A stretch of DNA of 64,000 nt, from the NCBI RefSeq assembly GCF_988242995.1, contig NZ_OZ547043.1, one strand, 5' to 3'. Under the pieces are notes generated by a model. That model was given only the letters and a program-made list of their open reading frames with translations, was not told where the DNA came from and made no database searches. Below are positions 43,885 through 60,589 of the stretch, in pieces; within the stretch, counting starts at the first letter, position 1; each line of letters opens with the position of its first letter. The translations under genes were made by a program, and so were the position numbers.

Positions 43885-44023
43885 TGGGACCCCCTTTTGA
43901 TTTCTTGTTTGACACTTGCAGTTGCCAGACCGCAAGGTGTTTTAACAAATCAAAAGGGGTTTTAATAACTGGCTCAAAGCTGAAAGCTTTCCGGAACCCC
44001 CAGCCTAGCTGGGGGTTTTCTGT

Positions 44024-48791: not shown

Positions 48792-51700
48792 TTACTGGAA
48801 GCAGGTCACCAGACCCGGTTTATTCATTAGCGTGATACTACAATCCTGTGCTCCAGTGCCTTCGTCCATTCCACACTGTTGAGAGGACAAATAAGGAAAA
48901 CTTGGTGAAGACGGCCATCCCAGTGAATTAAAAACAGTGTGCAACAACTCTAATTCATTGTATGTCGGTGCATTTTCTATGCTGCCACACTGCCTTGCAA
49001 TATCCCATTTACTGGCATCAATGATATGTGCAGAAGCCCAGTTTTCGTAGTTAATAATCGGTGAGGATACGGGATTAGCCCCGGACGGCAATTCTGTCGT
49101 TAACAACGGTCGATGTAGCGATTTACCATTCACCACTACAGTGTCTGCCATATGTCCCCAAAAGTGCGCCGAGGAAACATTCGGGCTGGTTGGTACCGTA
49201 AAAATAGCGTCCAGCGTGTCTGTCGCGGAAGCGTAATTAGCCAGAGTAACCGTCAGTGGCGTTTTATAACCAGGGGTATTATCCTGGCGGAGCGTAAAAC
49301 TTGCCGTCCCATCCGCGCCTGTCATGCCACTAATGGTATTACCGCTTTCACTCAGCGTAACAGCCGAACCAGATAACGGCTGAACGATGAGATCGTCCAT
49401 CGCCACCACATCACCATACAACGTCGCCCCAGCGTTACGCGGCGATGCATCGCCACGTTTCAAAGTAAATTCCACATTCGGTACCGTATTCCCGGCGCTG
49501 TCTTTCACCGTCACGGTAACGGGCATGGCTTCGCCTTTTTTCACTTTCGCCGCCTGAATAGCTGCGTCAAACGCTGTTGAGGTCAGTGTGACGCTGGAAA
49601 CCGTTGCGCGCGCAGACACCAGACACGCCTGATAAGCGGCATTACCATTCAATGTCGTTGTGCCATCTTTCATATTGAGCGACTGATTTTTACCATCTGT
49701 AGTCTTATCCTGCGCCCACCAGTAATAATAAACTGACCAGCCAGTTTCCGTCGTAAGGGTGTTATTGGGATAACGTTGATACAGTGACTTCATATCGCTG
49801 AGCAACGGTTGCCGGGCTTCCTCACAAGGGCTGAGGCTGGCATTTGCTTTAGTGGTTGACGAAAAATAGGGCCAGTCCTCATTATTGTTATTGGTTTTAT
49901 TTACCCCGGAGGTCGATGGCAGCTCCTTCCACAATTTCGGTCGTTCAAAGACGGTTCCATTTGCCGCTGTCACCGTTTCTGGCATATGACCCCAGTAGTC
50001 GGCATCCTGGGCGTCAGGGCTGGTGACCACGGTAAATATCAGGTCCAGGTTTGACGTGATCTGCGGATCTTGTGCAAGCGAGACCGTAAACGGCGTTGCC
50101 AGGCCGGTGGTGGCGTTTTGCGTAACATTGAACGTCACTGTGCCATCACTGCCGGTAAAACCAAGCCATTTTGCCGTATCCTGAGCAAAGGAAATACGGG
50201 TTGCTGTCGGTGTGACGACATCTACAATAAGATCATCTGCCGACGATGAGGGCCTAATTCCTGAACGACTTTTCGCCTGCGCCCGCTGAAGCGTCACGCT
50301 CTCGCCACTCAGCAGGTTGCCATTTTGGTCTTTTACTGTCACGACTAACGGGATTGTCTCGCCCTTTTTCGCCGATGCCGAAGGTGTACCGCCGTTACTG
50401 GCGGTTTTCGTCTCATCAAATGCTATTGAAGTCAGGGTAACGCTTGACGGCTTAGAGTGAGGCTGTGCCAGGCAGAGCATTAGAGCAACCGGAGAGAGTG
50501 CGGATGATACTCGTCCCGTACTTAGGTTAAAGACCTGATAATACCAGGAGCTACCATTGGAGTTAAGCAATTCATAAATCCACCAGTTTCCTGACGCTAT
50601 CGGCAACCCCAGATCTTTCGTTAACGCCCCGTTTGGGTGATCGTCATATAACCCCTGCAATTCGCTGAGGCGCGGTTGATATTCCAGCGAACAATCTGCC
50701 GTCGCTTTTTGAGTACTATATATATATGACCATGTCTCATTATTACCGTTTACCGAGCTCCCCGTAGTCGCTTCCGCTGCCAGTAATGGGCGCTTGAAGG
50801 TCACGCCTGCCGAACTGGTAAACGTTTCCGGCATATGGCCCCAGTATTTCGCTTTTGGCGAATCCGGGCTGGTTATCACCGTGAAAATGACATCCAGCGT
50901 GACGCTTTTCGAGGTATCGCGCATGAGTTCTGCGCTGAGCGGCGTTGACAGCCCATAACTGCTATTCTGGCTGACCTCAAACGTAGCTTTACCATCGCTC
51001 CCTGTCTTCAGGAGAGCCTGCGTCCCATCCCCATACAAGATTGACGTTACCCCAGTAGGTTCCACAGGTATGATGGTAAGATCATCTGCAGAAGCATCGT
51101 ACGCAGCTTTAGCGCGGTTCAGCGCAGTCCCTCGTTTAAGGTTAAAGCTGGCACCTGGCAGTGGATTGCCTGCGCTATCTCGCACCGTAACCGTCATCGG
51201 GATAACCTCTCCCTTCTTCGCTGTTGCGCTGGGCCTGCCATCATTGCTGGCCGTTTTCGTTGCATCCTCCGCCGTTGAGGTCATTTCAATAGAAGCCGCC
51301 TCTGGATGAGGGTTTACCAGGCACAGCATTAATGCCGAGGTGCTTGAAGACGCTCTTCCACTTGATCCATTTAACAGATAAATATATTGATCGTACCAGT
51401 TACCCGCATATGCCACCATGTCGTAAGCCCACCAGTAGCTATTTACCGGAATACCCAGATCGGTCTTTATCGCACGACTTGGGTGTTCGTCGTACAATGC
51501 CTGTAGTTCGCTTAACAGTGGTTGATAATGTACATCGCACCCGCTTTTATCGATATCCCCCTTTGTTGCCGATCTCAACACGGCCCACTCTTCATTGTCT
51601 TCTATAAACGACTGGCCCGACGATCTTTCAGCAGAGAGTAAGGGGCGTTTGAAGGCAGTACCAGAACGCGTAGTGAACGTTTCCGCCATATGCCCCCAGT

Positions 51701-54700
51701 AACTTGCCAGGGGGGTATCCGGGCTGGTTATCACGGTAAACATCACGGGTAATTTGTTGGATTCCAGGCTCGACTGATAGGCCTGAGCGTACACATTGGT
51801 TACCAGGCCTATAGAATCATCCTGCTTTACCGTAAACGTGGCTGTCCCGTCTGCACCTGTCACCGCATAAAGGGAGATTGATGGAGTATCCACTCTTGCC
51901 GACGTTCCCGCTGCGTTGATTACAGTGATAGTTCTGTTCGACAACTGTACATTCTGGCGATTTGTCGATCCTTCACGTTTGAGAATAAACGGAACATTTG
52001 GTACGACATTTCCCTGCGCATCTTTTGTCACCACGCGAATCACCGCGTCGTCACCTTTTTTCCGTTTTAGTGCGCTGAGGGTTTCGTCAACTTTGACAAA
52101 TTGTGTCGCATCGTTCGCTTCAACAATAATGTGGCTGGTCACCGCCACTGGGGTAGCCCGACAACTTAGCAGTCCTAGACTGCTTGACATGACCTCCGTT
52201 CCATCACCCGTTTTTAACGAAACCGCTTTAAAATTAAATGTTTGAGTGTAATAGGCAACAACCGTACTGGAGATATAGGCGCGTGATACAGGCCATCCCG
52301 TAACGTCATGTATTGGCACGTAACCTTCATCGGCATACAGTGACTCCAGCTCACTTTCAATCGGGACATATCCTGCACCGCAACCATTTACAGATGTGTT
52401 GTTCGACTGGTCCGGCGAGAACAGTGACCAGCTCTCTCCATCTTCCTGAAAAGAGCTTCGACTGGTTGTAACGGAAAGCTCATCTTGCAATAACGGTCTT
52501 TTATAAATAAGCCCGCCTGCACCGGTCATCGTTTCGGCCATATGCCCCCAGAATTTTGCTTTAGGGGTATCGGGGCTGGTTATCACCGTAAAGACCACCG
52601 GAAGCATTGATTTTACGTTATTATCTGTATCCAGCATGGCGGTCAGTTCGGTTTTTAAACCCGTGGTATTGTCCTGTTTCAGTGCAAGTGTTGTCGTACC
52701 ATCTGCGCCGGTAACGCCATAAATCAGTGCTGTTGTTGAGGAAAAATTACTCTGCGTGTTACCCCAGGCATCCGTCACGATGAGCGCGCCTGCTGTCACC
52801 GTTGTAGACGCATTTGCCCGATTGACGCTAAGGTTACGTTTAAGCGTAAACGCGGTATTTCCCACCGGGTTACCCTGCGAATCTTTAGTGGTCACGCGAA
52901 CCACGACTTCTTCCCCTTTTTTCGCTTTGACAACATTATTCGTACTGTCAAATTTCGCGGGGTCCGCAGCCTCAAGAACGATTTGGCTTGCCTTGACGAT
53001 CGGCGTCGTCTGGCAGGTAAGCAGTTCTTTTGTGGCCGATGGAATTATCGAACTGGTGCCTGAACTGAGATTGACGGCCTTGAAGTCACGCTGTTCCAGA
53101 CTACTGCTGCCTGTCGTGCTGGAAAGGTAACTTGAGGCGACGGGCCAGCCCTGAACCGTTTTCATCGCATTGCCGCGGTTGGCTTCATACAATGACTCCA
53201 GCCCGGCCTGGGAGGGAACATATTCACTACCACAACCATTAGAGGATGTGCTTGTCGCCTGAGTTTGGGTAAATTGCGCCCAGTCCTCATTATCTTCTGC
53301 AATCGCTGTTCGACCCGACGTACTGGATAACTCTTTCAACAATAATGGGCGTTTAAAGACCGTTCCATCCACAGCCGTCACCGTTTCAGGCATATGCCCC
53401 CACATTTTCGCCTTATCGCTGTCCGGGCTGGTGACAACGGTAAAAATGGTATCGAGGGTCGCTTTTTTCGTTGTGTCTGAATAGAGCGCGGCGGTCAGCG
53501 ACGTTTTTGTGCCATGGGTATCCGGGCGGGTAATAGTGAGAATTTTAGTGCCATCGCTGCCGGTCATCGCGCTGTATGCTGCGGCGGTATCATTGAGCGA
53601 AGTTTCATCCGCCAGGCCACTATTGATCACAACCGGCGCAACCAGCGCATCACCGCTACCGGCAATGTGTTTTTCGTTTGATCGGGTATAACCATCGCCA
53701 CGCTTCAGCGTAAAAGGCATATCACCCAATGGATTGCCCTGAGCATCTTTTACCGTCACCTTCACCTGTAGCGTTTCGCCTTTTTTCAGCTTCGCCGCAT
53801 TTGCTGCCGCGTTCCACTGCGCCGGGTCCACCACTTCCAGCGTAATGCTGCTGGCAGGATTGTTAGCCGTCGTCAGGCAACTGACATAAACCGCCGTGCT
53901 ACCGCCAATGGTCCGCGCGCCATCGTTGAGGGCTATGGTGTAGTAATGCGGCACCTGATCCGCGGGCGAACTGCTCCAGTAGGGCTGACGCTGCGTTGGC
54001 CAACCGTGTACCGTTTGAACGGCGTTACCGCTGTTAGCATCATAGAGCGCGTTAAGCTGGGAACGGCGTGGGAGCATATTGGCACCACAGCCACCTTTAC
54101 TGGTGCTGGAAGTGTTGGCCTGGCTAACGCGCGACCACACTTCGTTATTTTCCGTTAATGTGCCGTCCGGGCTGAACACTTCCGCAGCCAGCCGGGGTCG
54201 GGCAAAGGTTAATGCATCGACGGTAATCGTCTCATCCATATGACCCCACATCTGCGCGCCAACCGCATCCGGACTGGTGAGCGTAGTGAAAATCACATTG
54301 TAATTAACAGTATTGGGAATATAGGAGTTTACAGGCGCAATATTCAGCGGCGTCGCTAAGCCCACACCTTGCGGTTGCTTAATTTCCACAGTAGCAAAAC
54401 CCTGCGCATCCGTAGTACCTGCATAGACTAAAGACGGTTGCGATGTTCCGTAGAGCGTGCCATTCATCTCGATTGCGCCGCGGGTTGGATCATCGAAACC
54501 CGTGCTCTGCCCCTGACGATTTTTCCCCATATCTTTAGTGATGGTGAACGCGGTATACGGCACGGGCGCATTACTCAAGGCATTAAAGGTGCGTACCGTC
54601 ATGGTAATCGTTTCACCCACTTTAGCCTGCGCTCTGCTGCTTGTGGAAACATCATGATCGGTGGTCGCAGCAATCTGGGCGACCATCTCATTGCCCGAAC

Positions 54701-56834
54701 AAGAAAGGTAGTTTTGCTTAAAGCCGGAATAGGTGTCGATGTTGCCCGTGGCCAGGTTCACCGACGCGTGCGACGTCTCTTCCACCGCACTAAGATACGC
54801 TTTTTGCAACGTTGGCCAGCCATATTCGGTGCCGATGACATTGGCTGGATGTGCGGCAAACAAACTGTGCAATGAGCTTTGGCTCGGAATATGACCTAAA
54901 CCACACTCAGCCTGCATACTGCTATTCTGATCAAACAGCGCCCAGTCTTCGTTATTTTCCCGCACTGCTCCCAGTTCGTTGTCGGTTTCATCCGCCAGCC
55001 GTGGGCGTTTAAAGATATTATTCGCTTCAATAATGCCTAACATATGTCCCCACATCCGCGCTTTGTCGGAATCAGGGCTGGTGATCACCGTAAAAATAAC
55101 GTCTTTCTCATCCGAGGCGGTAAAATCACTGCGCATTTTCGCGGTGATGTGTGTTTTCACCCCCACGCCGCCTGGCTGGGTCAGCGTCAGAGAGGCCTCT
55201 CCGTTAGCATCAGTGATCCCTTCATAGGTATGGGCGTCAACTTTGCGAACGTTACTGCCACCATCAATTTGTACCGGGTGCGTCTCCCACGCAGCGTCAG
55301 TTTGATTCTTACGGTTAACACCGTCATCCAGATGCAGCGAAAAGTAGTAGTAAGCCAGCGGCTGATCGTTGTTCTTGCTATCGGTAATCGTCAGGCGTAA
55401 AGAAGCCTCTTCCCCCACCTTTACTTTCATCGCTTTTATCGTCGAATCATAACTGCCCGGCGTCAGTACCAGCTTCGGTTCAACATCGGGCGCTTCTTTA
55501 TCGACACAGCTCACAATAAACGTCGTATCGTCCGGTTTTTGCGCTTCGCTGCGGTTCGAAACATCCGCCGCATGGTGCTGGCCGCTCATCCCCGCCAGTG
55601 ATGACCAGTAGAAATTACCCTGCATCGGCCAACCAGCCACATCCTGCACTGACGTTGGCACCACCGTCGCCAGCGCACCGAAATGACGCATTCCGGGCAA
55701 AATGTCGCAATGTTTATCCGCGCCGCTCCAGGTAAAGGTGGACCAGGTTTCATTGTGATCGTTAACCGTACCGTCTTCATTATCGACTTCCGCCGCCAGT
55801 TTTGGTCGACTAAAAGTGTAATCACGGGCCTTCAGCGTATCGGGCATATGACCCCACATTGTAGCCTGCGGGACATCCGGGCTGGTGAGGACGGTAAAGA
55901 TCACTGCCGTTTCACTGGCCTGAGCAATACCCGCGAGGCTCGCGACCAACGGCGTTTTTACACCAGGGCCGTTGGCCTGGGTGACCGTAACCGTGGCAAC
56001 ACCATTCGCATCAGTAGTACCACGATATTCCGTCGCGGTGGTGGTTAATTCGGTCGTGCCCAGTTTTACCGGCGCAGTATTGTTCACCACACCCTGGCGG
56101 TTTTCAGCATCTTTGCGTTTGATAACAAAAGGAATATTCCCCACAACATTACCGACGCAATCTTTGGTGGTGACCGTTAACGTGATACTGCCGCCAACCG
56201 TCGTTTTCGCCGCACCGGAGGATTCGTCATAGCCCGCGGCGCTGACGGAAATAAGGTCACCCTGCGCGGGCGCAATCTTCAGCGTCACTTTCTGATCGGC
56301 GAGGGTCAGAACACTTTCATAGGGATAGCCCGTCGAGGTAAGTAGATATAACAGCGGCATGGTCTGCTGGGGGTCTGGCTGCGCCCAGGCGATCAGCGAA
56401 CGCCCGGCAAGGCCCTGTGCGCAAAATGAGCGATCTGCGACTGGCTGTGGGTCCAGTAAGGTGTCCGGCGTCGCGGCATCCGCCCAAACTAAAGATACTG
56501 TCGGTGGCGTTTGGTTTTCCCAACGTGGTGTGGCAATGATATCGCCTTCTCTGTCTTGCGGGTTGGTGACGAGCAATTTAGAGACGCTAACATCCGCGCT
56601 GAATTCACTCGGTTTAGCGGTAAACGCTACCTCATTCGTCTTTGCAGGATCCAGAAAGACACTGCCCTGGTAGACGGGTATGCTGGCACTGTCGGCGGTG
56701 GGCACGGTACCGTTAAATTCGCCGACCGTATCTGAAGAGTCTTGCCATGCAGATTCTGCCCATGACCACCCAGGCAGCATTGCGCTTATCAGCAATGCGC
56801 ATAACACAAGGATTTTATTCAGGGTCAGGGACAT
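48792..56834 (-). CDS. Giant (2680 aa) secreted Ig-like repeat protein, RatA/RatB-like; signal peptide followed by nine tandem ~280-aa modules
   Basis: Single uninterrupted ORF; N-terminal signal peptide [26 protein letters not shown]; nine copies of the motif FTV(I/V)TSPD...(M/F/Y)WGHM; GGAG RBS 9 nt upstream. Confidence 0.85.
49000..56100. repeat. Nine diverged tandem DNA repeats (period ~800-855 bp) inside the giant gene
   Basis: Plus-strand core catatg(n)cccca (= WGHM codons) recurs at ~49148, 49983, 50832, 51686, 52539, 53391, 54237, 55041, 55846. Confidence 0.8.
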
Positions 56835-56881
56835 GACAGAAACTCCACCGGTTGTTAAACGGACGCTTGTCGCATCAACAT

Positions 56882-56910
56882 ATTTTGCTTAATCCGGGAT
56901 TAAGCAAAAT
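56882..56910. promoter_or_regulatory. 29-bp perfect palindrome between sinI-like gene and giant gene (candidate operator or RNA structure)
   Basis: ATTTTGCTTAATCC-G-GGATTAAGCAAAAT: 14-bp arms with a 1-nt centre. Confidence 0.5.
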
Positions 56911-56919
56911 ATGCGGAAA

Positions 56920-56943
56920 CAGCATTCCCTTGCGGGAATGCTG
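56920..56943 (-). terminator. Stem-loop 12 nt after sinI-like stop (candidate attenuator / partial terminator)
   Basis: 10-bp stem cagcattccc/gggaatgctg, 4-nt loop, followed on the mRNA strand by UUU. Confidence 0.45.
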
Positions 56944-56954
56944 CTGAGTACGCG

Positions 56955-57932
56955 TTATTTGTGTTTGTAAATAATGTGAAGTTTGTAACCCTGTACCCCG
57001 TCGCCGTTTGTCGGAATGGTAAGAGCCTCTTTACCATCGCGCGCAGGACCGTTAAGGTTGGTTCTGGCCTCGTCGTTGGTCGCAGGGATGGCCAGATTGT
57101 TATTATCGAAGCTTGAGTTAACGATACCACCCGAAGTGCCGAGCTGCTGGCTGCTGCCAGAAAGTACCCAACGGAAGTCATAATTGGCGGTAACGTCAGC
57201 ATCGGTACCCGCATCAAACTTGCCGTTTTTGTTCTCATCCGAGTAAAGTTTGGCCACGTAGGTTTTGCCAAGTTCGATTGGCGTGCTGCCGTTGATAAGG
57301 TTGATACTGGTACCATCAACAAAGATGGCGACTTTCAGGTTCTGGTTAACCACCGGCCCTGGCGCAACGTTATCGCTGTCGCTTCCGCCGCCGTCGGCAG
57401 TAGAAACGTCATAAAGATGCAGCGCAGTCCCGACGTTTGGCGTACCGGTCTGCGTGGTTGGCGTAATTTCAATACCGATATAACGACCACGGTCGTCATC
57501 GGTAAGAGTGTAACTGGTCACCTTCGTTGCCAGCTCTTTTGGATCGTTACCCTGAGCGTCCTTGTAGCTCATCCAGCGGATAGTATCGATAGTCTTTGCG
57601 TTATCGCCCAATCCCCCAAGATCCACGTCGCCTTCGGTATCACCAATTTCCCAACTTACGGTTAATTTATCACCCGAGTAAAGACGCTTGTCCGTTTCAC
57701 TACCTGTCGGGCGAGCGCCTTTTAGATCAGAAGTCAACGTTACATGGTCGGCATCTGTCGTAGCGCTTCCCCCTTCCGAATAGAGCCACGGAATGGTTCC
57801 CTGGAAAATATTGGTTTCGCCGCTTTCGACCCAGGCGCTTTCTTCCGCCAGCGCCACAGGTGCCACACAATAACCTGCCAATGCCAGCGCCAATGCGATC
57901 CGGGTCAGACCGCGTCTTTTATCCTGCTTCAT
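56955..57932 (-). CDS. sinI: SinI-like secreted protein (CS54-island sivI homolog)
   Basis: 325-aa ORF with signal peptide MKQDKRRGLTRIALALALAGYCVAPVALA; AGGAGA RBS; C-terminal ~110 aa resemble the C-terminus of the adjacent SinH-like protein. Confidence 0.8.
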   Translation of the reverse strand: MKQDKRRGLTRIALALALAGYCVAPVALAEESAWVESGETNIFQGTIPWLYSEGGSATTDADHVTLTSDLKGARPTGSETDKRLYSGDKLTVSWEIGDTEGDVDLGGLGDNAKTIDTIRWMSYKDAQGNDPKELATKVTSYTLTDDDRGRYIGIEITPTTQTGTPNVGTALHLYDVSTADGGGSDSDNVAPGPVVNQNLKVAIFVDGTSINLINGSTPIELGKTYVAKLYSDENKNGKFDAGTDADVTANYDFRWVLSGSSQQLGTSGGIVNSSFDNNNLAIPATNDEARTNLNGPARDGKEALTIPTNGDGVQGYKLHIIYKHK

Positions 57933-57986: not shown

Positions 57987-60164
57987 TTATTTTTTGGTAT
58001 ACAGCACGCGTAAACCGTATCCCTGCAAGCCATCTCCCGCTTGTGCGCCATAGGTTTGCGCTGCTTCGCGGTTAGTGGCCGGAATCACAATGTCCTCATT
58101 GGAAGTGTTCGCCTGTGCACCCACTTCACCATTGATGCTCTTGCCGGTAAATTCCCACTTGTAGTCGTACTGCGCCATCTCTTCGTCAGTCAGTTTTTCG
58201 ACCTGCTGGAAGACACCGTCTTTATTGCTGTCACGCCACAAAACAAATCGATAAGTGTTGTTGAGCGGCAGCGGTTCTTTATCTTTACCTATCAGGTTGC
58301 TGGGTTTAGCTGCCCCCACACGATAGATAAATGCATTTAGCCCACCAATTTCTGCCCCGAGGAAAGTGACATCCACATAGTTACTGTCGTCGTAGGGCGC
58401 AGCTTTTGCTTTCCAGCGATAGGTGCCGGGTAAGGTACTGGAGAGGGTGACAGTGCCCTTTTCTTTATCTTGTTTAGCGATAAAAACGCAGGGGTTGTCG
58501 GTCGAGCAAGGCTTGTTGGTTAACGTCACTCGTTTGTCCTGCGCGTCGTAAAGCTGCGGCGTGAGGTTATCTTCCGGCAGCGCATCGCCATTGCGGTCGG
58601 TGTTATCGCCAAAGCTGTCGGTTACATCGAGATCCATCACCACACCATCAACGCCATCTGCCTGAGCGCTGGCTTCGTGGCTGTGGTTGTTCTCTTCCGG
58701 CACGTTCGCGATGTTATTAACAATCAACTCTATTTTACGGTCCTGCTGAACGGTGATTTCCACCACGCCAGAGTTCTGTCGGTTGCCCTTTTCATCTTCC
58801 AGTGCCAGACGTACTCGCCAGGTATTGAGTTTTTCTTGTTCGGCTTTGTCAGAGCTGTACTGCCAGGCGGGCAGCACCAGGTTCCAGTGGTTATTGTTAC
58901 CCTCTGTCAGGGTATTCTCTTTGATAACCGGCATAACCAACGTGCGGGCAGCATTGTTTTTCGCCTGCCATGACGCAGCGACAATTTTGTAGTGGTGGTT
59001 GATAAGCGCGTTAATGGTCCATTTACATTTTTCCAGCCCGACGGCCGCTTCGGGAGTGTCCTTAATGACGCACTCAGGGTGCTCGTTGGTGGCATCCGCT
59101 TTTAACCACAGGGTGACATCAAGCGGATCTTTTTCTTTGTATTCCAGAACAATAAAGTTATTACGCTCAACAAAATCATGACGACTGCCCATCAACGAGT
59201 GAGCCGCTTTCACTTTATCGCTATCCAATTGATCTTTTAGCGGAACGCCGAACTGATAATTAAGAGTGGCATTAATGCTGACATCGCTGTTATCTCCGGT
59301 CCCCGCTTTATAGTCCGCCCCAACGGTTAGTAATGGCACCGGTTGATAATTCAGTCCAAGTGTTACCGCGTAGGGATCTTTCTCCAAATTATCCGTACCA
59401 AAAAGGGCGACTTCATCGCCGTAATATTGCTCGAAGACAACTTTGCCCCCCAGTTGCGGATAAGAAGGTAACCAGGCTTCGGCACGAATATCCCAGCCGC
59501 GCGCAGGGCGTTCTTCATAAAAGTCGAAATCTTCAGAGTCTTTCCAGTCAGAAAGCGGATGATAATAGTTGCCAGAGAATTTTAAATAATCAGTCCACGC
59601 TTCGCCGCCTAAACCTAAACGGCGATGTCCTCGGGTAAAATCATAATCATAAAATATATTTCCGCCCAATAACCATTCATCAAAATTATGTCTTACCCCA
59701 AGACCAATATTCCCGATTGTACGATCTTCTTTTCGTTGCGCAGAAAATTGACTGAAATAAACAGTGGTTTGATTATCGTACCAGGGAACAAAATAATCGA
59801 TGGAACTACCATCCAGATCGCCGTCCTGGCCAATGGAGAGGTTCGAACGGACCTTACCGTAGGGAGAGAGTGTGTCTTCAATATAAGATTGTGCGGTTGA
59901 GGTGATTTGACTTTGCAGATAGCTTCTGGCCTGAGATTCCAGCGCCTCAGGGGTCAAGTTTTCAAACCCTTGCGTGGCGGAGTTGATGACGTAATCGGCT
60001 CCGCGCTCTTTCAGCGATTTACCCTTGTTGGTTTGTTCATCCTGCTGTGCTGCCTGGCTACCTAAATCAGGTAACGATTCGTTTTGCTTAACATTTATCT
60101 CTGGTGCCGCGAAAGCAGCACCAGAGATAAATGTTAGCATAATACAGCGTTTCCATCGCAGCAT
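57987..60164 (-). CDS. sinH: Intimin/invasin-family inverse autotransporter (type Ve), SinH-like
   Basis: ORF 57987..60194; start chosen at ATG 60164 giving signal peptide MLRWKRCIMLTFISGAAFA; beta-barrel translocator signature (GGNIFYDYDF...LGLGGEAWTDYLKFSGNYYH) followed by passenger domains. Confidence 0.85.
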   Translation of the reverse strand: MLRWKRCIMLTFISGAAFAAPEINVKQNESLPDLGSQAAQQDEQTNKGKSLKERGADYVINSATQGFENLTPEALESQARSYLQSQITSTAQSYIEDTLSPYGKVRSNLSIGQDGDLDGSSIDYFVPWYDNQTTVYFSQFSAQRKEDRTIGNIGLGVRHNFDEWLLGGNIFYDYDFTRGHRRLGLGGEAWTDYLKFSGNYYHPLSDWKDSEDFDFYEERPARGWDIRAEAWLPSYPQLGGKVVFEQYYGDEVALFGTDNLEKDPYAVTLGLNYQPVPLLTVGADYKAGTGDNSDVSINATLNYQFGVPLKDQLDSDKVKAAHSLMGSRHDFVERNNFIVLEYKEKDPLDVTLWLKADATNEHPECVIKDTPEAAVGLEKCKWTINALINHHYKIVAASWQAKNNAARTLVMPVIKENTLTEGNNNHWNLVLPAWQYSSDKAEQEKLNTWRVRLALEDEKGNRQNSGVVEITVQQDRKIELIVNNIANVPEENNHSHEASAQADGVDGVVMDLDVTDSFGDNTDRNGDALPEDNLTPQLYDAQDKRVTLTNKPCSTDNPCVFIAKQDKEKGTVTLSSTLPGTYRWKAKAAPYDDSNYVDVTFLGAEIGGLNAFIYRVGAAKPSNLIGKDKEPLPLNNTYRFVLWRDSNKDGVFQQVEKLTDEEMAQYDYKWEFTGKSINGEVGAQANTSNEDIVIPATNREAAQTYGAQAGDGLQGYGLRVLYTKK
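60089..60136. repeat. Perfect 19-bp inverted repeat (10-nt spacer) inside the sinH signal-peptide coding region
   Basis: taacatttatctctggtgc (60089-60107) ... gcaccagagataaatgtta (60118-60136); also creates a mirror-image ORF on the plus strand. Confidence 0.9.
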
Positions 60165-60194
60165 GCACTTTCCCTGTGACAATGATACAGTCAA

Positions 60195-60373
60195 AAATAA
60201 GCTTTAATATTGTATCCCTGATTATTCAGAAAGGCATGTCATAAAGAATAAATATATTCTTAATTATTTAAATTAGTGATTTCACTCAATTACATTAGTT
60301 ATTCCACTAATAACAGATTGTTTTACCATTCACATATTAAATATAAATGATAAAACAATATATTCACATGATA
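60195..60373 (-). promoter_or_regulatory. AT-rich promoter/leader region of the sinH-sinI-giant operon
   Basis: ~180 bp of strongly AT-rich non-coding DNA immediately upstream of sinH. Confidence 0.5.
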
Positions 60374-60589
60374 TTAAGCAATAACAAATTCAACGCGTTT
60401 TTTAGATATTAAATCGTGCCCATGTTGGCAGAAATAATCCACAGCACCACAAGCTTTTAACACTTGTAACGGCTGATGACACTCAGGGCAAAGTGCCTGG
60501 ACGGTAAAGTCTTTGTCGCAAGTTGCACAGTGGGCAGTCTCGCCATTGCGTTCGAGAGGGGTTTTGCAGGTTGGACAGTTGAGTGCCAT
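60374..60589 (-). CDS. yfgJ: Zinc-ribbon protein YfgJ (DUF1407)
   Basis: 71-aa ORF with two CPxC...C/H zinc-ribbon pairs (CPTCKT..CATCDK; CPECHQ..CQHGH). Confidence 0.88.
   Translation of the reverse strand: MALNCPTCKTPLERNGETAHCATCDKDFTVQALCPECHQPLQVLKACGAVDYFCQHGHDLISKKRVEFVIA

Follow-up and report, generated by a model that had tools for sequence, protein, structure and literature searches.

The stretch of DNA between sinI and the giant adhesin gene that follows it raises the question why 120 untranslated nucleotides carry two inverted repeats, and whether these are read as DNA (i.e. by a regulator) or as part of a messenger RNA. The window, which is the whole stretch of 64,000 nucleotides that was analysed, is E. 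coli DNA with the gene order der–yfgJ–sinH–sinI–giant RatA-like gene–xseA, in which the operon genes lie on the minus strand. A stretch of 401 bp around the junction is 100% identical to strain Ecol_316, and the RefSeq annotation of that identical locus lists der, a zinc-ribbon gene (yfgJ-like), sinH, a SinI-family gene, a 2680-aa 'adhesion domain-containing protein' (RatA-like) and the convergent xseA. Since sinH, sinI and the giant gene are all encoded on the minus strand, the mRNA corresponds to that strand. According to the annotation the island consists of these three genes only, and an earlier reading of the sequence alone (hereafter the sequence-only reading) was right in stating that it encodes no regulator. 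The locus for SinH, SinI and the Rat-like giant proteins serves colonisation in Salmonella and extraintestinal E. coli; a translocator with its substrates has been proposed for it (PMC4943183, PMC6714894), and sinH/iatB is activated upon LeuO over-expression (PMC6714894). A literature search returned nothing on the sinI–giant junction, the searchable papers being concerned with the proteins and with the LeuO activation of sinH/iatB.

Both inverted repeats described in the sequence-only reading are present in the junction on the gene (minus) strand (Table 1), although their geometry has to be corrected in several respects. The stem-loop behind sinI indeed has a 10-bp stem followed by UUU, but it starts 11 nt after the stop codon rather than 12, and its loop, quoted as TTGC, was read from the plus strand (it is GCAA on the mRNA). 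The palindrome is perfectly symmetric, as claimed, yet its arms are 17 bp long and it spans 35 nt in total, instead of 29 bp with 14-bp arms; and what separates it from hairpin 1 is only the 6-nt UUUCCG linker, not ten nucleotides. Folding of the junction (141 nt) yields -52.1 kcal/mol, compared to a shuffle mean of -31 (z = -5.9), and in the predicted fold the two helices cover ~77 of the 120 untranslated nucleotides. No structure of this kind is seen in the gap between sinH and sinI (z = -2.1), which fits co-transcription of these two genes.

Table 1. Features of the sinH–sinI–giant-gene region, with positions counted from the first letter of the window
Feature	Position	Strand	Basis or remark
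sinH	57987-60164	minus	Open reading frames and RefSeq annotation of the identical Ecol_316 locus
sinI	56955-57932	minus	Open reading frames and Ecol_316 RefSeq annotation
sinI stop codon TAA	56957-56955	minus	11 nt before hairpin 1
Hairpin 1, CAGCAUUCCC-GCAA-GGGAAUGCUG	56920-56943	minus	G+C-rich 10-bp stem with intrinsic-terminator anatomy
Hairpin 1 arms, CAGCATTCCC and GGGAATGCTG	56943-56934 and 56929-56920	minus	GCAA loop on the mRNA; followed by UUUCCG
UUUCCG linker	56914-56919	minus	Short U-tract and near-invariant CCG; alignment columns, RNAalifold
Hairpin 2, 35-nt perfect palindrome CAUAUUUUGCUUAAUCC-C-GGAUUAAGCAAAAUAUG	56879-56913	minus	Inverted-repeat search, folding, alignment
Hairpin 2 arms, CATATTTTGCTTAATCC-C-GGATTAAGCAAAATATG	56913-56879	minus	17 bp, 100% complementary
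Hairpin 2 8-bp core, UUUGCUUA paired with UAAGCAAA	56908-56901 paired with 56891-56884	minus	
UUGA directly 3' of hairpin 2	56875-56878	minus	Conserved in 15 orthologs
Variable spacer of the giant-gene leader	56850-56874	minus	Not alignable between genera
Shine-Dalgarno-like GGUGGAG	56843-56849	minus	8 nt before the giant-gene ATG; G-rich block conserved in the alignment
Giant gene (RatA-like, 2680 aa)	48792-56834; ATG 56834-56832	minus	Open reading frames and Ecol_316 annotation

Orthologous junctions were collected through a SinI protein search (relatives down to ~40% identity), after which the encoding contigs were fetched for a spread of organisms; a genome-contig scan with SinI alone gave four loci, such a single-protein query reaching close relatives only. 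The resulting set includes a second E. coli allele (84% identity), E. albertii, three Pseudocitrobacter species and one metagenome contig, as well as Salmonella enterica, S. bongori, Citrobacter, Kluyvera, Superficieibacter, two more Escherichia alleles (42-48% identity) and two Leminorella species. Every ortholog locus holds sinH, sinI and a giant BIg21-repeat gene, with a gap of 92-130 nt after sinI. Conservation of both structures in related islands, proposed in the sequence-only reading as a check, is indeed what is found: 15 of 16 junctions share one layout, i.e. the stop codon, 8-15 nt, hairpin 1, UUU(U)CCG, hairpin 2, GUUGA, a spacer of varying length and sequence, a G-rich Shine-Dalgarno sequence and the ATG. 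Leminorella grimontii (L017) has kept hairpin 1 and lacks hairpin 2, with another short second stem in the junction. The 15 orthologous junctions that were aligned represent at least eight genera, with SinI identities as low as ~42-45%.

In this alignment 97.6% of the pair cells hold standard pairs, and double (compensatory) changes occur in 10 of the 25 pairs, a degree of pairing and covariation that was matched by none of 500 shuffles. When the partners were slid by 1-3 columns as a control, pairing fell to 39-47%. RNAalifold recovers both helices without structure guidance. The stretch ahead of hairpin 1 and the spacer that follows hairpin 2, which serve as internal controls, are not conserved. 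The pairing is also strand-specific: the mRNA strand has 29 G·U cells versus 2 A·C cells (which correspond to G·U on the antisense strand), so that the 97.6% pairing of the sense strand compares with 90.4% for the antisense strand, and helix 2 alone pairs in 96.4% versus 85.8% of the cells. The outer pairs of helix 2 contribute 26 of the G·U cells, each of which is an asymmetry at the level of DNA. Because a DNA operator has no use for G·U pairs, the ratio of 29 to 2 indicates that these are helices of the sense transcript, i.e. of RNA. A small ORF running across the junction was rejected in view of indels in the loop and the U-tract.

Hairpin 1 resembles a canonical Rho-independent terminator in most respects. 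It has a G+C-rich stem of 10-12 bp (12 pairs are reached in RNA through one A-U and one G·U), a tetraloop and an immediate U-run, it is located 8-15 nt past the sinI stop in 15 of 15 orthologs, and an A-run often precedes it. Its energy is -17.4 to -20.6 kcal/mol in the window (z = -7.2 versus shuffles at -20.6) and -16 to -19 kcal/mol across the 15 orthologs. The stem has been almost wholly replaced between genera (e.g. CAGCAUUCCC, UACCACUCCC, GACCAUCCC, CGCCAUUCCC and UGCCGCUCCC) with the pairing kept, as 99.3% of its cells pair and 5 of its 10 pairs show double compensatory changes. A stable G+C-rich stem-loop within the usual limits (stem ~5-14 bp, loop 3-8 nt), a position after the stop codon and conservation of structure over sequence are therefore all found, whereas the U-rich tract of ~7-9 nt expected after the stem of an intrinsic terminator is not. 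Instead, hairpin 1 is followed by a short and interrupted tract (a run of 3-5 U in all orthologs), behind which a CCG is itself near-invariant (CAG in two orthologs). Among the eight nucleotides after the stem there are 3 U in the window (UUUCCGCA) and in the Citrobacter ortholog and 4 or 5 elsewhere, compared to the usual rule of at least 5 U in 8. A simple terminator scan did not call hairpin 1 in the window (3 U of 8) or in L016, and in L006 and L008 it picked a different, alternative stem.

Termination efficiency drops with a short or interrupted U-tract, and hairpin 1 is therefore expected to be leaky; a tract below the rule fits a weak site rather than a canonical strong terminator. The sequence-only reading had suggested a partial terminator or attenuator, which agrees with the proximity of the stop codon, the pairing kept despite a changed stem and the constant short U-run. 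Hairpin 1 is thus probably a leaky attenuator ahead of the 2680-aa gene, a reading that is well supported by its anatomy and by the comparative evidence, and in which part of the transcripts would end here and part would pass. At terminators close to a stop codon the terminating ribosome can reportedly affect formation of the stem. With 8-15 nt between the sinI stop and hairpin 1, a terminating ribosome could therefore disturb the stem, by which read-through would be coupled to the translation of sinI.

Several further observations concern hairpin 1. In Salmonella and E. albertii (L006 3984-4006, L008 4016-4037) its 3' arm can instead pair with UUUUCCGC(G/C) at -11 to -12 kcal/mol, and this alternative fold then runs into the U-rich start of hairpin 2, giving a second terminator-like fold. 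The alternative stem that the terminator scan had picked out in these two is not conserved and was set aside. The same was done with a leader-type attenuator with an antiterminator, for which the only alternative pairing (the 3' arm of hairpin 1 with UUUCCGC) amounts to -1.9 to -11.9 kcal/mol and is weak in most orthologs (-4.8 kcal/mol in the window). In E. coli UPEC129 (L139, NZ_CP071522.1, 1-3500) a Mu-like prophage with Gam, gp16 and Mor genes has inserted within the 5' arm of hairpin 1, at the site corresponding to ~56942/56943 of the window, and splits sinI from the giant gene; in the same strain the closing pair of hairpin 2 has G replaced by A.

Hairpin 2, the palindrome, has an energy of -21.1 kcal/mol (z = -7.8 versus shuffles) and is the longest perfect close-spaced inverted repeat in the window, in which the core pattern TTTGCTTA-N7-11-TAAGCAAA occurs once (none of 100 shuffles has it). 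Only the window's E. coli allele and its 84% relative show the perfect 35-bp symmetry. Across the 15 sequences the 8-bp core is almost invariant, with three uncompensated single changes, while the outer 5 pairs covary (with many G·U) and the apical loop varies in both sequence and length. In the UUGA that follows the helix the U, G and A are invariant and the second U is near-invariant. UUUCCG is predicted to pair with GUUGA through U-A, C-G, one C/U mismatch and then G·U (RNAalifold pairs 47-91, 48-90 and 50-88), which are flanking pairs that never vary, so that covariation cannot confirm them. The helix extended in this way would count 18 predicted pairs and one mismatch, or up to ~20 pairs in some orthologs, and its base would use part of the terminator U-tract; for an RNase III processing hairpin about two turns (~20 bp) of double-stranded RNA are expected. 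Hairpin 2 sits 30-44 nt upstream of the giant-gene ATG in all genera, the distance in the window being 44 nt with GGUGGAG included, and no predicted fold brings it into contact with the Shine-Dalgarno sequence. A role as second terminator was discarded, as no U-run follows the helix.

Judged from these comparisons, the palindrome belongs to the RNA: it is a conserved stem-loop whose core is constrained in sequence, and not a place where a regulator docks on the DNA; the 'alternative RNA hairpin' that the sequence-only reading had kept as its fallback is favoured by the sense-strand pairing. Structure alone cannot explain why the core is near-invariant while the outer pairs covary, and it seems therefore that something reads the core sequence, which suggests a trans-acting partner. 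A second copy of the 3'-arm core, UAAGCAAAA on the mRNA, lies ~74 nt into sinH (window 60082-60090, plus). Early sinH likewise holds a second UAAGCAAA, complementary to the 5' arm of hairpin 2, at L009 843, L015 839, L016 858 and L140 2846. As a functional copy this second TAAGCAAA was rejected, because it is confined to Escherichia alleles (Salmonella, Citrobacter and Pseudocitrobacter lack it), and it probably arose by chance from the coding sequence.

Promoter scans in four species found no sigma-70-like promoter in the stretch from hairpin 1 to the giant-gene ATG. For lack of a promoter-like site there, transcription of the giant gene probably relies on read-through; a promoter may still lie within the coding region of sinI. 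A number of individual candidates, judged by eye as well as from the scans, were dismissed. TTGCTT as -35 element has no conserved -10 after it, GTTGAA as -35 leaves too little room before the ATG, a sigma-54 -24/-12 element would lack GG at the right distance, and the extended -10 TGGTATTTT is confined to Salmonella. A boxA/nut-like UGCUUAA is a poor match to the consensus and is buried in a stem, and the operator consensuses of SlyA, LysR (T-N11-A), PurR and others gave no convincing match.

The sequence-only reading had seen in the palindrome first of all an operator. If a trans-acting dimeric regulator were to bind TTTGCTTA-N9-TAAGCAAA and control the giant gene, 8-bp half-sites that are almost invariant across genera would be readily understood (an RNA stem alone would tolerate compensatory changes), and so would the spacing of 9 nt in most orthologs and the perfect 35-bp symmetry of the window's allele; in its inverted half-sites and its dyad the element is like the palindromic operators of dimeric factors. 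Outside the core, however, the dyad is kept only by way of sense-strand G·U (29 vs 2), i.e. the flanks are symmetric only as RNA, with asymmetric DNA whose pairing is nevertheless selected. The half-site spacing changes to 8 nt in two orthologs (Pfaec and EspE4208) and 11 nt in one (Ecoli_HVZ29), and with ~17 bp the centres of the half-sites lie at a distance not usual for helix-turn-helix dimers. The palindrome has no promoter-like site at or next to it, every locus, the 64-kb window and 21 kb of Salmonella each hold the motif only once (i.e. it has no regulon copies), and there is no linked regulator gene in the island, all of which makes a DNA operator very unlikely. Recognition of the mRNA itself is somewhat less improbable, if still unlikely: a conserved RNA-binding protein or small RNA would read the UUUGCUUA/UAAGCAAA region and thereby gate translation or stability of the giant-adhesin mRNA. 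The core is kept over evolutionary distances at which the outer stem and the loop have diverged, as has the whole of hairpin 1, its place in the leader (30-44 nt before the ATG) is the same in all genera, and hairpin 2 matches no known family in Rfam. On the other hand, no candidate partner was found, recognition would require opening of the helix since double-stranded RNA gives little sequence read-out, hairpin 2 stays clear of the Shine-Dalgarno sequence in every predicted fold, and one species with the operon (L017) does without hairpin 2.

A more passive role for both hairpins would be that they stabilise the 3' end of the sinHI mRNA and keep the 120-nt gap folded against Rho loading, with no regulated step involved. 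Intercistronic stem-loops that protect upstream mRNA are well known (e.g. REP in malE-malF), the structure of the junction is under selection and its helices fill most of the gap, but such a role would leave the near-invariant core, UUUCCG and GUUGA unexplained, as well as the constant position of hairpin 1 beside the stop codon, and is very unlikely.

The reading preferred here, at a probability of roughly 0.6, is that the junction is a conserved structured part of the sinH–sinI–giant-gene mRNA, in which a partial terminator is followed by a hairpin of the read-through RNA. Hairpin 1 with UUU(U)CC would be a Rho-independent terminator with a weak U-tract that stops part of the transcripts, so that the very long giant-adhesin gene, served by read-through transcription, would be expressed below sinH and sinI. 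Hairpin 2 would form only on read-through transcripts, at the 5' end of the giant-gene leader, as a helix of 18-20 bp whose base pairs the terminator U-tract with the conserved GUUGA. It would then most likely set the fate of the read-through RNA, be it that the double strand is processed in the manner of RNase III, that the helix protects the RNA end left by cleavage in the linker, or that a conserved RNA-binding factor attaches to it. Ranked on the present evidence, a processing or stability element (possibly a helix of RNase III size or a protective 5' stem) would come first, a sequence-specific RNA-binding partner second and a DNA operator last. Against a purely structural role in the preferred reading stands that it, too, leaves the near-invariant 8-bp core unexplained. 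A bolder and rather doubtful extension is that hairpin 2 (core UUUGCUUA/UAAGCAAA, flanked by UUUCCG and GUUGA) might be an undescribed cis-regulatory RNA motif of inverse-autotransporter/giant-adhesin (sinH-sinI-ratA) operons, which an enterobacterial RNA-binding protein, nuclease or small RNA would read and thereby decide whether a read-through transcript yields giant adhesin. If the attenuator and leader hairpin work as proposed, they would set the ratio of translocator to giant substrate and offer an experimental handle for switching the giant adhesin on or off. More generally, a perfect palindrome in one genome can be the lineage-specific tidy form of an RNA stem rather than an operator.

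The closest analogy to the sinI–giant junction would be the gap between rplL and rpoB in the rplKAJL-rpoBC operon of E. coli, in which an internal attenuator and an RNase III site are located, partial termination and cleavage have been demonstrated, and the large distal genes are expressed at a lower level. The two have in common an intercistronic partial terminator before very long genes and a separate hairpin in the same gap. They share no sequence similarity, and at the sinI–giant junction both cleavage and partial termination are inferred only; moreover, RNase III sites are not characterised by an invariant A/U-rich core such as that of helix 2 (~18-20 bp). Intercistronic stem-loops that stabilise mRNA are also known from REP in malE-malF and from papB-papA processing, where, as here, stable hairpins between cistrons can set differing levels of the upstream and downstream genes; REP elements are multi-copy, unlike the sinI–giant element, which is single-copy and locus-specific. 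The single-stranded U-rich linker between the two stems is in turn reminiscent of RNase E sites.

Of 5426 complete E. coli genomes, 938 carry the 401-bp stretch (939 megablast places), invariably on the chromosome. The second 'place' appears only with the perfect-palindrome allele and the model search described below shows a reverse-strand echo at the same coordinates, so we infer that this echo is what it represents. Genomes with the window's allele have at most one mismatch in the 123-nt junction in 922 of the 938 cases, compared to only 246 of 938 with at least 99% identity over 401 bp including the coding flanks; the flanking coding DNA differs by 2-4%. Between UTI89 and the window, for example, there are 31 differences in the last 746 nt of sinI, 1 in the junction and 23 in the first 735 nt of the giant gene. 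The junction is thus more conserved than the coding DNA on either side and is under selection within E. coli. A diverged allele with the same junction layout occurs in another 746 genomes, including the ST131 strain JJ1887, which brings the element to 1684 of 5426 complete E. coli genomes (~31%), among them UTI89 (one mismatch in the 120 nt), JJ1887 and Nissle 1917, whose junction is identical to that of the window. In the plasmid collection the only matches are two mislabelled chromosomes.

A covariance model built from the alignment gives one match per locus, together with reverse-strand echoes of the palindromes, and nothing further across the 64-kb window or the 21 kb of the Salmonella island that were searched, the ratA–ratB junction included; the motif is also absent upstream of Salmonella sinH. 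REP/BIME, other repeated extragenic palindromes and MITEs were rejected because the element is single-copy, and a mobile-element origin because it is single-copy and orthologous. Rfam 15 has no match at E <= 1 over the junctions of E. coli, Salmonella enterica, S. bongori, Citrobacter and Leminorella. A metagenome scan for the bare core returned, among the matches listed (at least 120, with L018-L137 examined), two true junctions, i.e. L034 (E. coli) and L134 (Pseudocitrobacter); the remaining matches listed are chance palindromes in unrelated contexts and are uninformative on a regulon. One 3.1-kb contig, L002 (JAIJJM010000381.1, 'MAG: Collinsella sp.', Actinobacteria), carries E. coli sinI (98% identity) and an identical junction, and is almost certainly a binning contaminant.

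Some features of the surroundings can be added. Directly upstream of sinH a zinc-ribbon gene (PF07191, YfgJ-like, 70-75 aa) is found in every Enterobacteriaceae locus, at 60374-60589 (minus) in the window and at L006 184-405, L011 348-575, L012 329-547 and L014 338-550, with the proteins from four loci being 61-75% identical to that of the window. It is kept where the neighbour is not der, i.e. next to an MFS transporter (Citrobacter), an oxidoreductase (Kluyvera) or an AraC-type gene (Superficieibacter), and none was called in the two Leminorella loci; the gene may be transferred together with the island. Upstream of sinH the DNA is very rich in A+T, in E. coli (window 60165-60373, minus) as well as in Salmonella (L138 7406-7750), as is typical of horizontally acquired genes silenced by H-NS, which fits the activation of sinH/iatB by LeuO (PMC6714894). 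In some E. coli strains, such as WP8-S17-ESBL-12 (L143) and N24 (L144), the annotation treats the giant adhesin gene as a pseudogene because of an internal stop, and their junction is intact. A few kb outside the island, a full-length Rfam match to the Hfq-binding sRNA STnc490 (RF01405) lies at 43894-44017 (minus) of the window, with 146 bits and E = 2e-30.
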